6,511 nt of DNA from a virus. Its lineage: Duplodnaviria; Heunggongvirae; Uroviricota; Caudoviricetes. Positions 1 through 6,273 of this stretch are shown one piece after another (the first letter of the stretch is position 1; every line of letters starts with the position of its first letter). The DNA is taken from positions 1 to 6,511 of the IMG/VR virus record IMGVR_UViG_2698536485_000005; one strand, 5' to 3'. A model generated the notes under the pieces. It had not been told where the DNA came from, did no database searches, and saw only the letters and a program-made list of their open reading frames with translations. A program made the position numbers and the translations under genes.

Positions 1-151
1 AGAGCCGTGTTTATTGAGTCGGTATTCAGAGTCTGACCAGAAATTATTAATCTGGTGAAGTTTTTCCTCTGTCATTACGTCATGGTCGATTTCAATTTCT
101 ATTGATGCTTTCCAGTCGTAATCAATGATGTATTTTTTGATGTTTGACATC
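1..151 (-). CDS. Hypothetical protein, N-terminal 50 codons only (runs off the left edge of the window); start ATG at 151..149
   Basis: Open minus-strand frame from ATG (151) to the window edge: MSNIKKYIIDYDWKASIEIEIDHDVMTEEKLHQINNFWSDSEYRLNKHGS... GAGG about 9 nt upstream of the ATG; in-frame stop immediately upstream fixes the start. Not in the ORF track because it is partial. No family recognised. Confidence 0.45.
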
Positions 152-171
152 TGTTCATATCCTCACAGATA

Positions 172-197
172 AAAAATCGCCCTCACATTGGAGGGCA
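172..197 (-). terminator. Intrinsic (rho-independent) terminator on the minus strand, downstream of the 346..795 gene
   Basis: GC-rich 6-bp stem GCCCTC (180..185) / GAGGGC (192..197) with a 6-nt loop; on the minus strand the stem is followed directly by a run of six T (plus-strand A-run 172..177). Confidence 0.6.
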
Positions 198-258
198 AAG
201 AAGATTTCCAATAATCAGAACAAGTCGGCTCCTGTTTAGTTACGAGCGACATTGCTCC

Positions 259-286
259 GTGTATTCACTCGTTGGAATGAATACAC
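259..286. repeat. Perfect 9-bp inverted repeat GTGTATTCA-N10-TGAATACAC in the 3' untranslated region of the 346..795 gene
   Basis: Arms at 259..267 and 278..286 are exact reverse complements; no adjacent T-run, so it is not an obvious terminator. Could be a protein-binding site or an RNA stem-loop. Confidence 0.4.
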
Positions 287-345: not shown

Positions 346-795
346 TTACTTAACCAATGATGCTGCATATTCGATAAGGTAAAGTTTTGGGGCCAGCCAA
401 ATTTTTAACCAAGTCATATTGGTTACTACACCAATAATAAAAATCCCCCACAGAGTCAAAACTCCAACCAATGGCATGATAAGAAGGTTAATATCTCCTT
501 TGCTATCCCAAACCATTGTCGGCCTGTATTTGGGATTTCCCATCTCCCATGAGTATCCTTCATCACCGATTTTACCTGTCTCAACTCTTTGGCACTGCTT
601 CTTCATAAACCAGAAAACCAGTGGGATTGTTAGAATGGCTATTAATGTTTTAATCAGACTGTCAACCATATTCCATAGCAGCAACTGATGAACAACATCA
701 GGAATCTGTGCCTGGCTAAATGAAACAGCCGCGTCTATTCCATTACTGGCTTTTTGCAGTAGTTCTACGAGAATCTTGTTTGCTTGTTCTTCCAT
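346..795 (-). CDS. Small integral membrane protein (149 aa, two predicted transmembrane helices), function unknown; candidate prophage exclusion/abortive-infection effector
   Basis: ATG start with AAGGTG 4 nt upstream on the minus strand. About 46 soluble N-terminal residues, hydrophobic helix LIKTLIAILTIPLVFWFM, about 38-residue loop, second hydrophobic helix INLLIMPLVGVLTLWGIFIIGVV, short C-terminal tail. A+T-rich relative to the replication genes. No family recognised from memory. Confidence 0.7.
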   Translation of the reverse strand: MEEQANKILVELLQKASNGIDAAVSFSQAQIPDVVHQLLLWNMVDSLIKTLIAILTIPLVFWFMKKQCQRVETGKIGDEGYSWEMGNPKYRPTMVWDSKGDINLLIMPLVGVLTLWGIFIIGVVTNMTWLKIWLAPKLYLIEYAASLVK

Positions 796-873: not shown

Positions 874-925
874 TACCCCTACAGCGAGAAATCGGATAAA
901 CTCTATTCACCCCTACAGAGAGAAT
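874..925. repeat. Two near-identical 16-17 bp direct repeats (ACCCCTACAG[C/A]GAGAA) spaced 34 bp apart in the divergent intergenic region
   Basis: Copy 1 at 875..890 (ACCCCTACAGCGAGAA) and copy 2 at 909..924 (ACCCCTACAGAGAGAA); they lie between the divergent starts at 795 (minus) and 941 (plus), the second copy just upstream of the GGAG ribosome-binding site of the 941 gene. Confidence 0.5.
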
Positions 926-940
926 GATGGAGATTCACCG

Positions 941-1480
941 ATGAGTAACTGGTGGCAGGAACTATTACGTTTCTTCCTGCGTGGTCTTACGCTACAACAG
1001 TTAATTCATATGCTTATTATTTTAATTGCCTTGATAATAATCACCCCAGCATCAATTAAAGAGTGGGTAGATATAAGGAACCCCGAAATACTTCCAGATC
1101 ACTGGATGTATTACGCAATGCTTTTGTGTATCAGTTATGTTCTGAACAGGGTGATGGAGTTTATATTTCTGGCATCTTCAGACAGATATAAAAAATATCT
1201 CAGTAAGAGAGATGAGGCTAAAGTAATTGTGGAGACTGAGCACCTGTTCAATTCTCTGAGTATTCAGGAAAAAGAGGTTTTAGCATTTGCTGTTATGGCA
1301 AATAACAAAATTGTACTTAAGCACGGCGATCCGGTCGCTTTATCTCTTATGAGAAAAGGCCTTCTCCATCGCTCAGGTGTGACTTACAGCGCGTCAGGTA
1401 AAGAGAAATTTGTTATACCTGACGTCTGGTTCCATGAGTGTTATATGCGCTTTGCTGGTAAAGCTGATGAGCTAATTTAG
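941..1480 (+). CDS. Membrane-anchored protein (179 aa; two N-terminal TM helices plus about 100-aa soluble C-terminal domain); possible SieB-like superinfection exclusion protein
   Basis: ATG with GGAG 8 nt upstream. Hydrophobic segments LIHMLIILIALIIITPA and WMYYAMLLCISYVLNRVMEFIFLA. Lies next to the immunity region and convergent with the predicted pL, the arrangement I recall for sieB in lambda/P22/Rac. Size and topology fit SieB, but sequence homology was not verified. Confidence 0.6.
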   Translation: MSNWWQELLRFFLRGLTLQQLIHMLIILIALIIITPASIKEWVDIRNPEILPDHWMYYAMLLCISYVLNRVMEFIFLASSDRYKKYLSKRDEAKVIVETEHLFNSLSIQEKEVLAFAVMANNKIVLKHGDPVALSLMRKGLLHRSGVTYSASGKEKFVIPDVWFHECYMRFAGKADELI

Positions 1481-1594
1481 TTCCTCGACGGCGGGGGATC
1501 GTCATCTCGCTGTCAGTTGTTTTGATTTCCTGTTGCCTGCCGCGTAAAGAGCTTGTGTCACGAGATCGCTAACCCCGTATATAAAAACACTTCA

Positions 1595-1610
1595 ATAACT
1601 ATCAAGTTAT
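1595..1610. repeat. Perfect inverted repeat ATAACT-atca-AGTTAT in the pL leader region
   Basis: Exact 6-bp arms with a 4-bp spacer; a second perfect inverted repeat with the same half-site in the opposite arrangement (AGTTAT-aaa-ATAACT) lies at 1743..1757 beside OL. Confidence 0.4.
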
Positions 1611-1706
1611 GGAAATGTTCTTTTGTAGTGAGCAGCATTGCCGTTCATCCTGAACCCGCCGCGCTCCCGACGCATGGTTTAATGTCGCGCCGTTCGACAT
1701 GGCTTA

Positions 1707-1735
1707 ACTATATCCAAAGCTATTATTGATGTAAA
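1707..1735 (-). promoter_or_regulatory. pL-like early leftward promoter
   Basis: On the minus strand: -35 TTTACA (plus 1730..1735), 17-bp spacer, -10 TATAGT (plus 1707..1712); predicted start near 1700. Both hexamers overlap operator-like sites. Confidence 0.6.
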
Positions 1736-1749
1736 TAGCTATAGTTATA
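1709..1749. promoter_or_regulatory. OL operator sites (two recognisable 16-bp sites matching the OR half-site consensus)
   Basis: AATAGC-tata-GTTATA (1734..1749) and TATATC-caaa-GCTATT (1709..1724) match the OR consensus AATAGC-N4-GCTATT; centres are about 25 bp apart and overlap the pL -35 and -10. Confidence 0.5.
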
Positions 1750-1833
1750 AAATAACTCCTTTGGTTATTTAATCATTGATATCTAATGTAATTTATTTTT
1801 CTTGTATGTGAGATTTGGTGTTTTTGGGGCAAT

Positions 1834-1860
1834 AAAAAACCCGCAAAAAGCGGGTTTGTT
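1834..1860 (-). terminator. Intrinsic terminator immediately downstream of cI (minus strand), possibly weakly bidirectional
   Basis: Stem CCCGC (1840..1844) / GCGGG (1850..1854) with an AAAAA loop, flanked by an A-run (1834..1839) that gives a T-run after the stem on the minus strand; it sits about 20 nt past the cI stop (1877..1875). The plus-strand side has only an interrupted T-run. Confidence 0.65.
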
Positions 1861-1874
1861 GTGGTGTGATGAGG

Positions 1875-2606
1875 TTAGTAGTCAACTACAGACCACCAGA
1901 AGATTCTTCCGATGATCTCGATATCGCTTAGATTCTTTTCTTCTTGTGGGTATTCCAGTGAGTTAAAGCTTCTAATGCTTACCTTGTCAGGCCCTGATCG
2001 AAAGAGAATCTTAATGCGTTTCCAACCGTTCTCGTTAATGGCGTAAATCTTTCCGTCAACTATTTTCTTATCGTTGGTGTTAACAGCAACTGTTGTTCCA
2101 TCAGGAATGTTTGGCTCCATGCTGTTGCCACGAGCCGGAAAACAAACAACCCCGCTTCCATCACTGTTCGCACCAACTCTGCGAAGGGTTGATTTGGAGA
2201 AGCGCAACATAAAGCCGTTGTGATCTTCATCAATCACCCGACCATCCCCGCATGCAAACTCAATATCTTTAAGGTAAGGAATTTCAACTTCATCACCTCT
2301 TAAAGGCGTTCCTCCATCCCATGGGTCCAAATATCCCCACGTGCTTTCATGAGGAATAGAAGATTTTGGATTATAAGGTTCAACTCCCTCATCACGCATT
2401 GGCCCAGTTCCATCGGAAAGCCATTCCGTACGAACTCCAAGCACTTTTGATATTTCAAAAAGTTTGCGCGTATTGCGTGTTTTTCCAGACGTAAGTTTCC
2501 AGACGCTTGGCTGAGACATGCCAACAGCATTGCCAAGTGAAGCCTGAGTAAACCCAGCCTGATCCATCGCGTATGTAAGCCTTTGAGAAAAAGTATCTAG
2601 TTTCAT
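1875..2606 (-). CDS. cI: CI-type prophage repressor: N-terminal HTH DNA-binding domain plus C-terminal LexA-like S24 autopeptidase domain
   Basis: 243 aa. N-terminal HTH region (...GFTQASLGNAVGMSQPSVWKLTSGK...), C-terminal GNSMEP serine motif (Ser162) and downstream GWKRIK lysine, with a linker F-A-C-G about 42 residues before the Ser. Divergent from cro across an operator region; apparently leaderless start, as for lambda pRM transcripts. Confidence 0.93.
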   Translation of the reverse strand: MKLDTFSQRLTYAMDQAGFTQASLGNAVGMSQPSVWKLTSGKTRNTRKLFEISKVLGVRTEWLSDGTGPMRDEGVEPYNPKSSIPHESTWGYLDPWDGGTPLRGDEVEIPYLKDIEFACGDGRVIDEDHNGFMLRFSKSTLRRVGANSDGSGVVCFPARGNSMEPNIPDGTTVAVNTNDKKIVDGKIYAINENGWKRIKILFRSGPDKVSIRSFNSLEYPQEEKNLSDIEIIGRIFWWSVVDY

Positions 2607-2641: not shown

Positions 2642-2681
2642 ATACCTAAAGCTATTTACTTTCTGAATAGCTTTGGCTATT
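2617..2681. promoter_or_regulatory. OR operator region: three inverted-repeat operators (OR3, OR2, OR1)
   Basis: tATAGC-taca-GCTATt (2617..2632), AATACC-taaa-GCTATT (2641..2656), AATAGC-tttg-GCTATT (2666..2681); centre-to-centre spacing about 24-25 bp. The outer sites overlap the -10 elements of pRM and pR. Confidence 0.7.
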
Positions 2682-2683: not shown

Positions 2684-2714
2684 TCTGATTGTGAATTCAA
2701 CAGGAGTTATTTTT

Positions 2715-2945
2715 ATGGTCAACAAGGCTATTAAAGCGGCTATTGACTCAGTAGGAAGTCAGCAAAAGTTAGCTGATGCCTGCGGTGTTAAGCAGCCGTC
2801 TGTATGGGCTTGGTTGCATGGGAAGAAAAGGGTATCCGCTGAAAATGCCAAGCGCATTGAAATGGCTACCAATGGAAGCGTCCCTGCATACCTGATTCGC
2901 CCTGATTTATCCGCTTTGTTCCCCAATCCGAACAAAGCAGCTTAA
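2715..2945 (+). CDS. cro: Cro-like small HTH repressor (76 aa)
   Basis: ATG at 2715 with AGGAG 8 nt upstream (the ORF-track start at 2673 is a TTG lying inside the operators/promoter). First rightward gene after OR/pR; HTH segment QQKLADACGVKQPSVWAWLHGKK shares the QPSVW motif with the CI recognition region. Not lambda-Cro-like in sequence; the call rests on position and HTH. Confidence 0.8.
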   Translation: MVNKAIKAAIDSVGSQQKLADACGVKQPSVWAWLHGKKRVSAENAKRIEMATNGSVPAYLIRPDLSALFPNPNKAA

Positions 2946-3064
2946 TAAAGCAAATCTTTATACCGAACGGCCCGGTATACGGTCGGGTGCCCGGCGTGGT
3001 CAAGGATGACTGTCAATGGTGCACGATAAAAACCCAAATTATTTATCTATGGAGATAGTAAGAA

Positions 3065-3361
3065 ATGACACAAGCAAGTTACAGCAAGCCAACACAGCGA
3101 GAAATTGATCGCGCTGAAACTGATTTACTCATCAACCTGTCAACGCTTACCCAGCGCGGTCTGGCAAAGATGATTGGCTGTCATGAATCGAAGATAAGCA
3201 GAACGGACTGGAGATTTATTGCTTCGGTCTTGTGTGCTTTCGGAATGGCATCAGATATCAGTCCGATTAGCAGGGCTTTTAAGTATGCGCTTGATGGACT
3301 CACCAATAAAAAACGCCCGGCGGCAACCGAGCGTTCTGAACAAATACAAATGGAATTTTAA
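3065..3361 (+). CDS. cII: CII-family transcriptional activator (98 aa)
   Basis: GGAGA ribosome-binding site 9 nt upstream. The C-terminal about 20 residues (LTNKKRPAATERSEQIQMEF) match the lambda CII C-terminus as I remember it; the N-terminal two-thirds differ from lambda CII. Position directly after cro is canonical. Confidence 0.85.
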   Translation: MTQASYSKPTQREIDRAETDLLINLSTLTQRGLAKMIGCHESKISRTDWRFIASVLCAFGMASDISPISRAFKYALDGLTNKKRPAATERSEQIQMEF

Positions 3362-3383: not shown

Positions 3384-3656
3384 ATGCGAAACAAAGGCTT
3401 TAATCCACCTGATACACACAAAGAAGTTAAGCGTTTGCGCTTCCTTCGTTCCATTGATGAAAGAACTCAAATCTCTTTTGTGAAAGTTGCCAGAACTGAG
3501 CTTCTGAAGGCTGAGGCAAGGGCGTTGCTCCCGTCTCTACCAAAAGAGGAGGGGTATACGTTCATTCCAAACGCATTTCTGGAAAAGCTGCTCAAAGAAG
3601 ACATATCCGTAAGTCAGTTTAACGATGTTCTTAAGGTCTTTCGTCAAGGCAGGTAG
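3384..3656 (+). CDS. Hypothetical protein (90 aa) between cII and the replication initiator
   Basis: ATG at 3384 with GAGG 7 nt upstream; stop TAG at 3654..3656, 2 nt before the O-like start. The ORF-track entry 3219..3656 is the same frame extended upstream into cII and is not preferred. No family recognised. Confidence 0.55.
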   Translation: MRNKGFNPPDTHKEVKRLRFLRSIDERTQISFVKVARTELLKAEARALLPSLPKEEGYTFIPNAFLEKLLKEDISVSQFNDVLKVFRQGR

Positions 3657-3658
3657 TT

Positions 3659-4606
3659 ATGAGCAATACAGCAAAAATCTACGATTTCAGCGCCGCACAC
3701 GAGCGCAGGAGCAACAGGATGGAGAACCAGAAAACTGGTTACATTCCGTTGTACCGGAGCATTCTGAAACAGTCATGGGCGAAAGATGTTTATCTTCGCA
3801 CCCTGTGGGAAAACCTTCTCCTGAATGCCGCCAGAAAGCCATACAAAGCGAATTTCAAAGGTCATGAATGGCATCTGCAACCCGGTCAACTGGTTGTGAC
3901 AGCAGCTGATTTAGGTCTTCAGTTATGCGACAGGCATGGCAAGCCGGCAAGCCGTGATCAGGTTGAGCGGATGCTTCAGGTTTTTGTGAAAGAGGGGATG
4001 ATCTCCATTGATGGAGAGAAGCAAAAAGGTCGTGTGATCACCATCACAAATTACCATGAATACGCTCAAAAAATGGACAATTCACCCGCACATGATGCCG
4101 CACAAACAACCGCACATGATGCCGCACATGATGAAGACAGTAATGGCGCGGCTTTCAGCGTACATGCCGCACATGAAAGCGCACATGAAGCCGCACAAAC
4201 AACCGCACATCATGAACAAGAAGGTATTAACAAGAATATAAATAATACCCCCCTACCCCCCAATGGGGGCGGCGATGGGCAGGTTAAACCTGAACGTCGC
4301 AAGGCAGAACGCATCGACTACGAATCCTTCCTGAACGCCTACAACACCGAAGTCGGTGACAGACTGCCACACGCTGTTGCGGTCAACGAGAAACGCAAAC
4401 GCCGCCTGAAGAAAATCATCCCGCAACTGAAAACGCCAAACGTGGACGGTTTCAGAGCGTATGTCAGGGCGTTTGTGCATCAGGCCAAGCCGTTTTACTT
4501 CGGAGACAACGACACGGGCTGGACGGCCGATTTTGATTACCTGCTGAGAGAAGATTCGTTAACGGGAGTTCGGGAAGGGAAGTTTGCAGACAGGGGGATT
4601 GCATGA
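3659..4606 (+). CDS. O-like replication initiator protein (315 aa) with the internal origin
   Basis: N-terminus [10 protein letters not shown]... resembles the lambda O N-terminus (MTNTAKI...). The middle of the gene carries tandem 12-bp DNA repeats encoding an Ala/His/Asp-rich linker, followed by an AT-rich tract; the stop overlaps the helicase start (ATGA). Confidence 0.88.
4086..4250. repeat. Replication origin: eight 12-bp iteron-like direct repeats in two blocks of four, followed by an A+T-rich unwinding region
   Basis: Block 1 at 4086..4133 (CCGCACATGATG, CCGCACAAACAA, CCGCACATGATG, CCGCACATGATG); block 2 at 4167..4214 (CCGCACATGAAA, GCGCACATGAAG, CCGCACAAACAA, CCGCACATCATG); AT-rich stretch 4215..4250; then a CCCCC...GGGGG element at 4251..4270. 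Same iteron-plus-AT-tract-inside-O layout as ori-lambda. Confidence 0.7.
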
Positions 4607-5979
4607 GACAGGATATCGAAGCGAGCGTTATCGGTGGCCTGCTGATTGGTGGATTAACACCAACCGCCAGCGACGTTCTGGCAACACTGGAGCCGGAAGC
4701 GTTTTCAATTCCGCTCTACCGGAAAGCCTTCGAGGTTATCCGCAAGCAGGCGAGAAACAGAAACCTAATCGATGCGCTGATGGTTGCCGAGGCGTGCGGA
4801 GAGGAGCATTTCACGTCAATCCTGATGACCAGCAAAAACTGCCCGAGTGCCGCAAACCTGAAGGGATATGCCGGAATGGTCGCGGATAACTATCACCGCC
4901 GTCTGGTGCTGGAAATCATGGATGAAATGCGTGAACCAATTCAGAGCGGAACCATCGACGCATCGAGTCAGGCGATGGATGAACTTGTAAAACGTCTCTC
5001 AGCCATCAGAAAGCCCCGTGACGAGGTTAAACCTGTACGGTTAGGGGAAATCATTACTGACTACACTGACACGCTTGACAGGCGTCTGAGGAACGGAGAA
5101 GAGTCAGATACCCTGAAGACCGGAATCGAAGAACTTGATGCCATCACCGGAGGGATGAACGCGGAAGACCTGGTGATAATCGCTGCTCGTCCTGGTATGG
5201 GGAAAACCGAGCTGGCGCTGAAGATTGCCGAAGGCGTGGCAAGTCGTGTTATTCCTGGTTCTGACGTCCGGCGCGGAGTATTGATTTTCTCGATGGAAAT
5301 GAGCGCATTGCAGATTGCAGAGCGAAGCATTGCCAACGCCGGGAGGATGTCGGTTAGCGTACTGCGAAATCCTGCATCAATGGATGACGAGGGCTGGGCA
5401 CGTGTTGCTAACGGCATGAGTCAGCTTGCAGATTTGGATGTATGGGTAGTCGATGCCTCGCGGTTATCGGTCGAAGAAATACGCTCAATCGCAGAACGGC
5501 ACAAACAGGAAAATCCAAACCTCTCACTCATCATGGCGGATTATCTTGGCCTGATTGAGAAGCCGAAAGCAGACCGCAACGACCTCGCAATTGCTCACAT
5601 CTCAGGAAGCCTGAAGGCGATGGCGAAAGACCTGAAAACACCGGTTATCTCCCTAAGTCAGCTTTCGCGCGATGTTGAGAAGCGACCAAACAAACGCCCG
5701 ACAAACGCAGATTTGCGTGATTCAGGAAGCATTGAGCAGGACGCAGACTCAATCATCATGCTCTATCGGGAAGCGGTATATGACGAGAACAGTAGCGCCG
5801 CGCCATTTGCTGAAATCATCGTGACGAAAAACCGTTTTGGCTCACTTGGTACGGTTTACCAGCGGTTCTGCAACGGACACTTTGTTGCATGTGACCAGGA
5901 TGAAGCCAGACAGATTTGCACAGCATCAAATGCGCCTGCTGCGCGTGGCAGACGATATGCACAAGGGGCGGACGTATGA
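4603..5979 (+). CDS. DnaB-family replicative DNA helicase (458 aa; P22 gene-12-type phage helicase)
   Basis: AGGGGGA ribosome-binding site 6 nt upstream. DnaB N-terminal domain motifs (IGGLL..., [15 protein letters not shown]), Walker [13 protein letters not shown], and C-terminal [41 protein letters not shown] typical of DnaB helicases. Confidence 0.95.
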
Positions 5980-6057: not shown

Positions 6058-6273
6058 ATGATGGACACTGTTAACGGAATGTGTTCAGACGCACCGCGTG
6101 CCAAAAAATGTAAATGCGGAAAATCACCGACAATATTTGACATGGAGAACGGGTGCCAAATCTACTGCGCTAACCACGCCGCTGTGGCGGCCGCGAATTA
6201 TCGCAGTGCGGTAACGGAGTGGAATAACCTGAAATCTGTTAGAGAGGGAAGTCATGAAAAAACTAACCTTTGA
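6058..6273 (+). CDS. Small Cys-rich hypothetical protein (71 aa), possible zinc-binding
   Basis: GAGGGGG ribosome-binding site just upstream of ATG 6058. Five Cys arranged C-x8-C-x-C-x12-C-x3-C; the 3' end overlaps the ninB start by 20 nt. No family recognised. Confidence 0.55.
   Translation: MMDTVNGMCSDAPRAKKCKCGKSPTIFDMENGCQIYCANHAAVAAANYRSAVTEWNNLKSVREGSHEKTNL

Follow-up and report, generated by a model that had tools for sequence, protein, structure and literature searches.

The leader of the leftward early transcript (1700..1629, minus strand) is very probably an HK022-type putL element and the sequence at 2958..3023 on the plus strand its partner putR, so that put antitermination replaces the N protein and the nut sites in this phage; the probability of this reading is put at roughly 0.93. 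The window, i.e., the whole stretch of viral DNA that was analyzed, is 6,511 nucleotides long. The put system itself is an already known phage RNA element, the putL/putR pair of HK022, and it was recognized in the window by sequence identity, by position, by a fold with covariation, and by the absence of N, Nun and nut sites. Three other explanations, weighed below where the relevant evidence is given, are improbable even when taken jointly.

Gene Content and Organization of the Window

Judged from its sequence, the window spans the region for immunity and early replication in a lambdoid phage or prophage of Enterobacteriaceae. Genes were assigned using the ORF list, Pfam and comparison with annotated phages.

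1..150, minus strand: start of ea10 (DUF2528)
346..795, minus strand: 149-aa membrane-type protein, 57% identity to HK639 gp44
941..1480, plus strand: sieB (superinfection exclusion B; Pfam PF14163, E 2.9e-20), convergent with pL transcription
1857..1837: cI terminator, after the cI-type repressor gene (terminator scan)
1875..2606, minus strand: cI-type repressor (HTH and S24 peptidase; Pfam)
2715..2945, plus strand: cro-like repressor gene (Pfam YdaS_toxin and P22_Cro), transcribed from pR
3065..3361, plus strand: cII
3659..4606, plus strand: O-type replication gene
4603..5979, plus strand: DnaB-type helicase gene
from 6254, plus strand: start of ninB

The reading frames of cI, cro, cII, O and the helicase were all uninterrupted within the window. 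The repressor, cro and operators were unlike those of HK022 and matched the immunity region of phages APC_JM3.2 and PDP110P2.

Several other features were observed along the window. The 149-aa predicted membrane protein (346..795, minus strand) had no Pfam match and recurs downstream of putL in HK639 and in two other loci (L033 and L087). A possible regulatory site lies immediately upstream of sieB, where the divergent intergenic region carries two 16-nt direct repeats spaced by 34 nt, at 875..890 (ACCCCTACAGCGAGAA) and 909..924 (ACCCCTACAGAGAGAA). The O-type replication gene contains two sets of 12-bp repeats, about four in each (4086..4133, CCGCACATGATG; 4167..4210, CCGCACATGAAA), which encode AHDAA/AHEAA repeats and are presumably origin iterons. 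A strong terminator hairpin (12 pairs and a T-run) lies on the minus strand at 3310..3337, within the 3′ end of cII, where the encoded protein is identical to lambda cII; we take it to match the lambda oop RNA terminator in position and sequence. Two small plus-strand ORFs complete the rightward region, one of 90 aa between cII and O (3384..3656), with no Pfam match, and a Cys-rich one of 71 aa between the helicase gene and ninB (6058..6273).

Early Promoters and Operators

Promoter scanning and a family of 15–16 bp operators placed the early control signals as follows.

1707..1749, minus strand: pL promoter, sigma-70-like (TTTACA at 1735..1730, 17 nt, TATAGT at 1712..1707; 10/12 matches in the promoter scan)
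1709-1724 and 1734-1749: oL operator sites, overlapping the pL promoter
2618-2632, 2642-2656 and 2667-2681: oR operator sites of the same family as oL, in the divergent pRM/pR region
-35 at 2655 and -10 ending at 2683, plus strand: pR promoter (promoter scan)

The pL -35 hexamer and the promoter spacing were the same as in the HK022 pL annotated in O276. The spacing of the annotated HK022/O276 pL (-10, six bases, +1) sets the pL start at A1700, in agreement with the start near 1700 predicted in a preliminary description of this DNA.

The control regions of pL and pR have the appearance of an inverted duplication. The segment 1710..1748 resembles 2642..2680, and a perfect 12-nt inverted repeat (1749..1760, AAAATAACTCCT; 2702..2713, AGGAGTTATTTT) extends the oL/oR similarity past the operators to the cro ribosome-binding region.

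Identification of putL and putR

Two put elements were delimited, one on each early transcript.

1629..1700, minus strand: putL, 72 nt, from the transcript start A1700 to A1629
2958..3023, plus strand: putR, within the cro-cII spacer, some 268 nt past the predicted start of pR transcription

When 1481..1875 was compared with phage records by sensitive blastn, 1626..1706 had 92.8% identity over 83 columns to the annotated putL of HK022, HK75 and O276, and 84% (83.9%) identity to the putL-like RNA of HK639. In a multiple alignment using the numbering of the cryo-EM structure (PMC9378689), putL did not depart from HK022 anywhere from A8 through A73; the differences were confined to positions 3, 5, 17 and 19 and to a 5′ end one base shorter. 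The four substitutions (AGACG...CGUCU in HK022, UGUCG...CGACA in the window) amount to two compensatory flips from A-U to U-A, and both flipped pairs sit in the helix A3-G7:C15-U19. The GUCG/CGAC form of this first helix is the commonest among natural put elements, where it makes up the majority, and also occurs in HK639; such natural variation suggests that the shorter 5′ end and the four first-helix differences are tolerated. Because the identity runs from A8 to A73, all residues described as functionally important in put, namely A9, U28, G35, U68 and the strand 20–23 (PMC9378689), are kept.

Like that of HK022/O276, the putL of the window begins at the predicted +1, 6 nt past the -10 element. 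It contains AACCAT, a sigma-70 -10-like hexamer, at 1679..1674 (NANNAT, +23..+28 in HK022), which has been proposed to cause a sigma-dependent pause aiding folding (PMC9378689); the 9-nt segment bearing this hexamer is missing from putR. In the cro-cII spacer, 2957..3070 had 98.3% identity (blastn) to the HK022 putR annotated in O276 and HK75, with an identical core, and its distance from the pR start is close to the ∼270 nt given for HK022 (PMC9378689). Visible blocks of sequence are common to the minus-strand leader and the plus-strand cro-cII spacer. HK022, together with HK75 and the laboratory hybrid O276, thus has the same put positions, the same two-stem fold and the -10-like AACCAT in putL only. 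The preliminary description had listed an RNA-based put-like element among three options and proposed a comparison with HK022 put RNAs; this comparison identified the leader as HK022 putL itself, and also brought out the putR of the cro-cII spacer, which that description had missed.

A putL-like antiterminator RNA was reportedly described in phage HK639 by King et al. in 2011. HK639 resembles the window in its GUCG/CGAC first helix, in lacking nun, and in carrying the gp44 homologue within the same pL operon; it differs in a stem II base and upper stem altered at many positions, with compensation, and in an immunity region that is laid out differently.

Fold and Covariation of the put RNAs

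Residue mapping from the cryo-EM structure (PMC9378689) placed the elements of the published fold on putL as follows.

1700-1695 with 1687-1682, minus strand: helix a
1692-1688 with 1672-1668, minus strand: helix b
1681-1677, minus strand: triplex strand
1666..1630, minus strand: stem II, with the bulged U at 1634

In that fold the 5′ strand pairs with C15-U19, C10-G14 pairs with C30-G34, and stem II carries the bulged U68 (PMC9378689). Every pair of this two-stem fold can form in the window sequence. The possible 5′ stem-loop noted earlier at 1682..1700 (ATGTCG-N7-CGACAT) is indeed present and is what the cryo-EM structure shows as the helix A3-G7:C15-U19 (PMC9378689).

The cryo-EM pairing scheme was laid on an alignment of seven putL sequences (the window, HK022, UPF_BP1, phiEt88, S9-5, CobraSix and HK639). 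Standard pairs filled 93% of pair cells, against 24–49% when the 3′ partners were slid; eight pairs had changed on both sides, and the covariation score was reached by none of 500 shuffles. A covariance model built from the seven sequences was then run over the window, annotated comparators and 80 IMG/VR contigs carrying a degenerate put pattern. It found just two matches in the window, at 1625..1703 on the minus strand (104.1 bits) and 2957..3029 on the plus strand (43.9 bits); in many other phages, too, it found a divergent pair of this kind, which brackets the immunity genes with about 1.3 kb between its members. The covariance-model alignment was used for putL and putR together, as MAFFT misplaced the 9-nt indel in stem I. 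Across 122 copies (45 distinct), 91% of cells were paired versus 18–49% in slid controls, with 134 two-sided changes versus 36 in shuffles and an observed score that 0/500 shuffles reached; covariation is mute on the helix C10-G14:C30-G34, because that helix is invariant.

Structure prediction for the first part of the pL transcript had been suggested as a check, and it failed as one: the single-sequence minimum free energy structure missed the published fold and scored no better than shuffles (z +0.36 and +0.37). Structural support therefore comes from homology and covariation, and structure prediction by itself would not have identified the put element here. In an Rfam scan of the window with E up to 1, no family matched either put site, so that there is no curated model to confirm put membership. 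The Rfam matches obtained elsewhere in the window (a microRNA, Yfr1, Trp leader and isrK) were spurious, and none fell at the put sites.

Short Reading Frames in the Leader

The leader also contains two very short minus-strand ORFs, which the preliminary description had correctly located and regarded as a possible source of a tiny N-like peptide.

1700..1602, minus strand: 32-aa ORF (ORF list)
1675..1607, minus strand: 22-aa ORF with the Arg-rich N-terminus MRRERGGFR (ORF list)

The idea that one of these peptides is the antiterminator draws on the Arg-rich N-terminus of the 22-aa ORF, on its AUG being invariant among put loci, and on the transcript of this variant, which would open with AUG at +1 in the form of a leaderless mRNA. 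This idea is extremely unlikely. Among 47 distinct putL sequences, the start codon of the 32-aa frame occurs in a minority of put variants, the first codon being ATG only in AUGUCG variants and CAG, TAG or AAG elsewhere, HK022 included. The 22-aa frame spans anything from 13 to 39 codons, and its residues vary, with non-conservative changes (ERGGFRMNGNAAH, TPGGLRESGNGA, TIGGLRESGNYG) exactly where stem II has changed on both sides. Its AUG lies within the invariant RNA motif CCAUGCG, which holds U28, and no Shine-Dalgarno sequence precedes it. Neither ORF matched Pfam, including the N_peptide family (PF25694) that matches HK97 N, and HK022 put is active in vitro with polymerase alone (PMC9378689). 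The two ORFs are by-products of the conserved RNA. One possibility is that the AUG at +1 of this putL variant permits leaderless translation, which would compete with put folding.

Absence of N and of nut Sites

The preliminary description had pointed out that the interval between pL and the convergent gene end at 1480 lacked an N gene, and this held when lambda N, HK97 N and HK022 Nun were searched by tblastn against the whole window: nothing was found beyond a 16-residue C-terminal fragment (HK97 N residues 112-127, at 1552..1505).

1501..1553, minus strand: 3′ remnant of an HK97-type N gene, its last 16 codons (ALYAAGNRKSKQLTAR) and stop

The remnant matched the final 52 bp of HK97 N at 94% identity (15/16 residues identical by tblastn), and has neither a start codon nor the arginine-rich motif. 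The equivalent fragment in NRZ14408 is annotated by NCBI as an incomplete N peptide pseudogene. In the near-identical pCDF6_2 prophage, the annotated left arm lacked an N-family gene.

A boxA-like octamer, GCTCTTTA, was present once on the transcript strand (1552..1545), as noted earlier, and a nut-type site there might recruit N or host Nus factors encoded elsewhere in the genome; its likeness to boxA, its place on the pL transcript and the adjoining N-gene fragment speak for such a site. The octamer, however, is the codons GCT CTT TAC (A-L-Y) of the N remnant, identical in the intact N gene of HK97, and at least one match occurred in 47/200 shuffles. Because it is N coding sequence and occurs at chance frequency, it was judged not to be a nut site. 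The octamer is not followed by a boxB hairpin, as remarked earlier, and a search of the whole window allowing three mismatches found no lambda-type boxB. The place of nutR, the cro-cII spacer, is taken by putR, and the annotated left arm of pCDF6_2 is likewise without N. Recruitment of N or Nus factors through a nut site is accordingly highly improbable, and given putL and putR, a factor encoded outside the window, the third option of the preliminary description, need not be invoked.

In lambda, N, nutL and nutR do the same job from the same map positions, one at the head of the pL transcript and the other between cro and cII. The lambda system consists of N protein, boxA-boxB RNA and Nus factors assembling on N, whereas put RNA itself modifies the polymerase. 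An intact N with an N-terminal arginine-rich motif as first pL gene, and lambda-type boxA-boxB on both early transcripts, were both lacking in the window. The lambda genome has sieB (plus strand, 34482..35036) abutting N (minus strand, 35037..35438), the same layout as sieB and the N remnant here. From this layout the window can be read as a left arm of lambda type, with a put-bearing immunity module having replaced pL, nutL and most of N.

A gene beside the same putL in E. coli MBT-5 (L254, 2132..2494) bears the doubtful public label 'antitermination N domain protein'. Its product was rejected as a candidate N, being an acidic protein of 120 aa without an arginine-rich motif or a Pfam match.

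Terminators along the pL Transcript

In transcript order, the pL leader interval (∼220 bp) consists of putL, a hairpin followed by UUUUU, a 34-bp linker, the N remnant and the 3′ end of sieB. The following elements lie on the transcript beyond putL.

1576..1622, minus strand: AT-rich 17-bp hairpin followed by UUUUU
1549..1582: linker of 34 bp between the hairpin and the N remnant
168..198, minus strand: tL2a intrinsic terminator, upstream of ea10 (terminator scan and O276 annotation)

The AT-rich hairpin, a few bases past putL, is probably the first intrinsic terminator on the pL transcript, a putative function. It had a dG of -15.5 kcal/mol (z -4.0), and one in 200 shuffles folded as well; it is flanked by an A-run and a U-run, and its plus strand was weaker (dG -8.1). 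A simple terminator scan overlooked it. The hairpin is kept in UPF_BP1 and NRZ14408. At the position of the linker, these two have 631 bp of DNA that includes an HNH endonuclease gene (L009, 3863..4493; L005, about 930..1480; compared with 1549..1582 in the window). The HNH segment also occurs in about 15 other loci, while the window, pCDF6_2, MBT-5 and 01_3327 have the 34-bp linker and a shorter N remnant.

The second leftward terminator, which the preliminary description had placed at 172..197, is real. It was recovered by the terminator scan, its hairpin and U-run (198..177, minus strand) had a dG of -12.9 kcal/mol (z -3.4), and it is the annotated tL2a of O276; window positions 1..260 were ∼99% identical to both lambda and O276. 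O276 is a viable laboratory hybrid whose immunity region is that of HK022 and whose other genes are all lambda's, and its viability showed that the HK022 immunity region contains elements equivalent in function to lambda's antitermination elements (PMC6256539). Since O276 carries both, the pairing of an HK022-type putL with lambda tL2a and ea10 already exists in a working phage.

Distribution and Evolution

Of 5,426 complete E. coli genomes, 38 carried the 80-nt putL, and none of the matches listed had a RefSeq feature there. The pCDF6_2 prophage shares the exact arrangement at 1481..1720 with 100% identity, and two chromosomes have it at 96%. Phage records with put included Escherichia, Salmonella, Enterobacter and Erwinia phages. 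A search of genome contigs with the degenerate put pattern yielded, among the 80 loci listed, one real put by the covariance model (Winslowiella arboricola); the pattern is GC-rich and therefore mostly gives chance matches in high-GC genomes. In several phage records, protein-coding calls overlay putL (UPF_BP1, L005 1596..1694; S9-5, L012 2238..2618; CobraSix, L011 2398..2754), and these calls are spurious.

This distribution bears on whether the put elements could be inert relics of a decaying prophage, with the leftward genes using their own promoters or staying silent. The region is a mosaic with scars (the N remnant and the HNH-gene indel), cI is frameshifted in the closest relative, pCDF6_2, and the window is too short to judge the intactness of the prophage. 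Both put copies, however, are intact at all positions conserved in the family and differ from HK022 only by compensatory changes; cI, cro, cII, O and the helicase gene are all open; and many independent E. coli genomes share this putL at 100% identity, as do isolated phages such as APC_JM3.2, UPF_BP1 and PDP110P2. That the elements are relics is thus very unlikely, while the prophage as a whole may be defective, in which case they would be idle.

The segment downstream of putL differs from that of HK022. In place of nun, the window has the AT-rich terminator-like hairpin, the 16-codon N remnant and the convergent sieB, and homology with HK022, as with APC_JM3.2 and PDP110P2, breaks within ∼3 nt of the last put residue. 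Only eight of 122 put-carrying loci had a Nun homologue downstream of putL, so absence of nun is the rule among them. C-terminal N fragments lay just downstream of putL in about 20 of the 122, in at least five lengths and from two N lineages, and the HNH gene in about 17. The fragments start at residue 66, 76, 98, 106 or 112 of HK97-type N, or at residue 104 or 108 of lambda-type N. Besides the window, they were seen in L004, L006, L009, L016, L026, L033, L034, L040, L048, L055, L058, L073, L087, L089, L106, L117 and L118.

From these comparisons, the N fragments beside putL look like a recurring recombination scar with several breakpoints, and the pattern suggests that the put-flanked immunity module may be swapped as a whole, having taken the place of N-type modules on more than one occasion. 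A bolder and more doubtful proposal, possible though not the likelier outcome, is that the put pair and the immunity genes it encloses form a portable, self-contained antitermination cassette that repeatedly replaced the 5′ segment pL-nutL-N of N-dependent lambdoid phages. It draws on the homology break ∼3 nt from the end of putL, the presence of Nun in 8/122 loci and the varied N fragments in ∼20. If true, the switch from protein to RNA antitermination happened several times independently and left a recognizable scar.

In one viral contig with put (L132), a stretch of 23 residues ∼1.5 kb downstream of putL matched lambda N in its arginine-rich N-terminal region (residues 33-55 of the 133-aa annotation) at 91% identity. 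This phage might combine a put element with an arginine-rich motif of the N type.

Proposed Mechanism

In HK022, nascent put RNA binds the beta-prime zinc-binding domain of its own polymerase and stays there for 10 kb or more; it counteracts swivelling and, with no help from protein factors, suppresses pausing and termination of both kinds, intrinsic and Rho-dependent (PMC9378689). By analogy, we infer that put acts on the polymerase in this phage and allows read-through of the two leftward terminators. The first 72 nt of the pL transcript, from about A1700, would fold into putL while still on the polymerase, and putR would emerge from the cro-cII spacer ∼270 nt into the pR transcript. Each nascent put RNA would bind in cis to the beta-prime zinc-binding domain and remain attached, giving an elongation complex that would resist pausing and intrinsic and Rho-dependent terminators with no need for a phage protein. 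Leftward, the polymerase would pass the hairpin at 1622..1576, run antisense over sieB and then cross tL2a (198..168) to reach ea10 and the recombination genes; in the rightward direction, it would be carried through cII and the replication genes toward Q.

Implications for Lambdoid Phages

The puzzle raised by the preliminary description, a pL operon with a terminator and no N gene, is settled by a textbook alternative mechanism. The practical value lies in annotation, as a put covariance model would let pipelines recognize lambdoid phages that lack N. The recurring N-gene scars beside putL offer a small window on the swapping of regulatory modules among phages.
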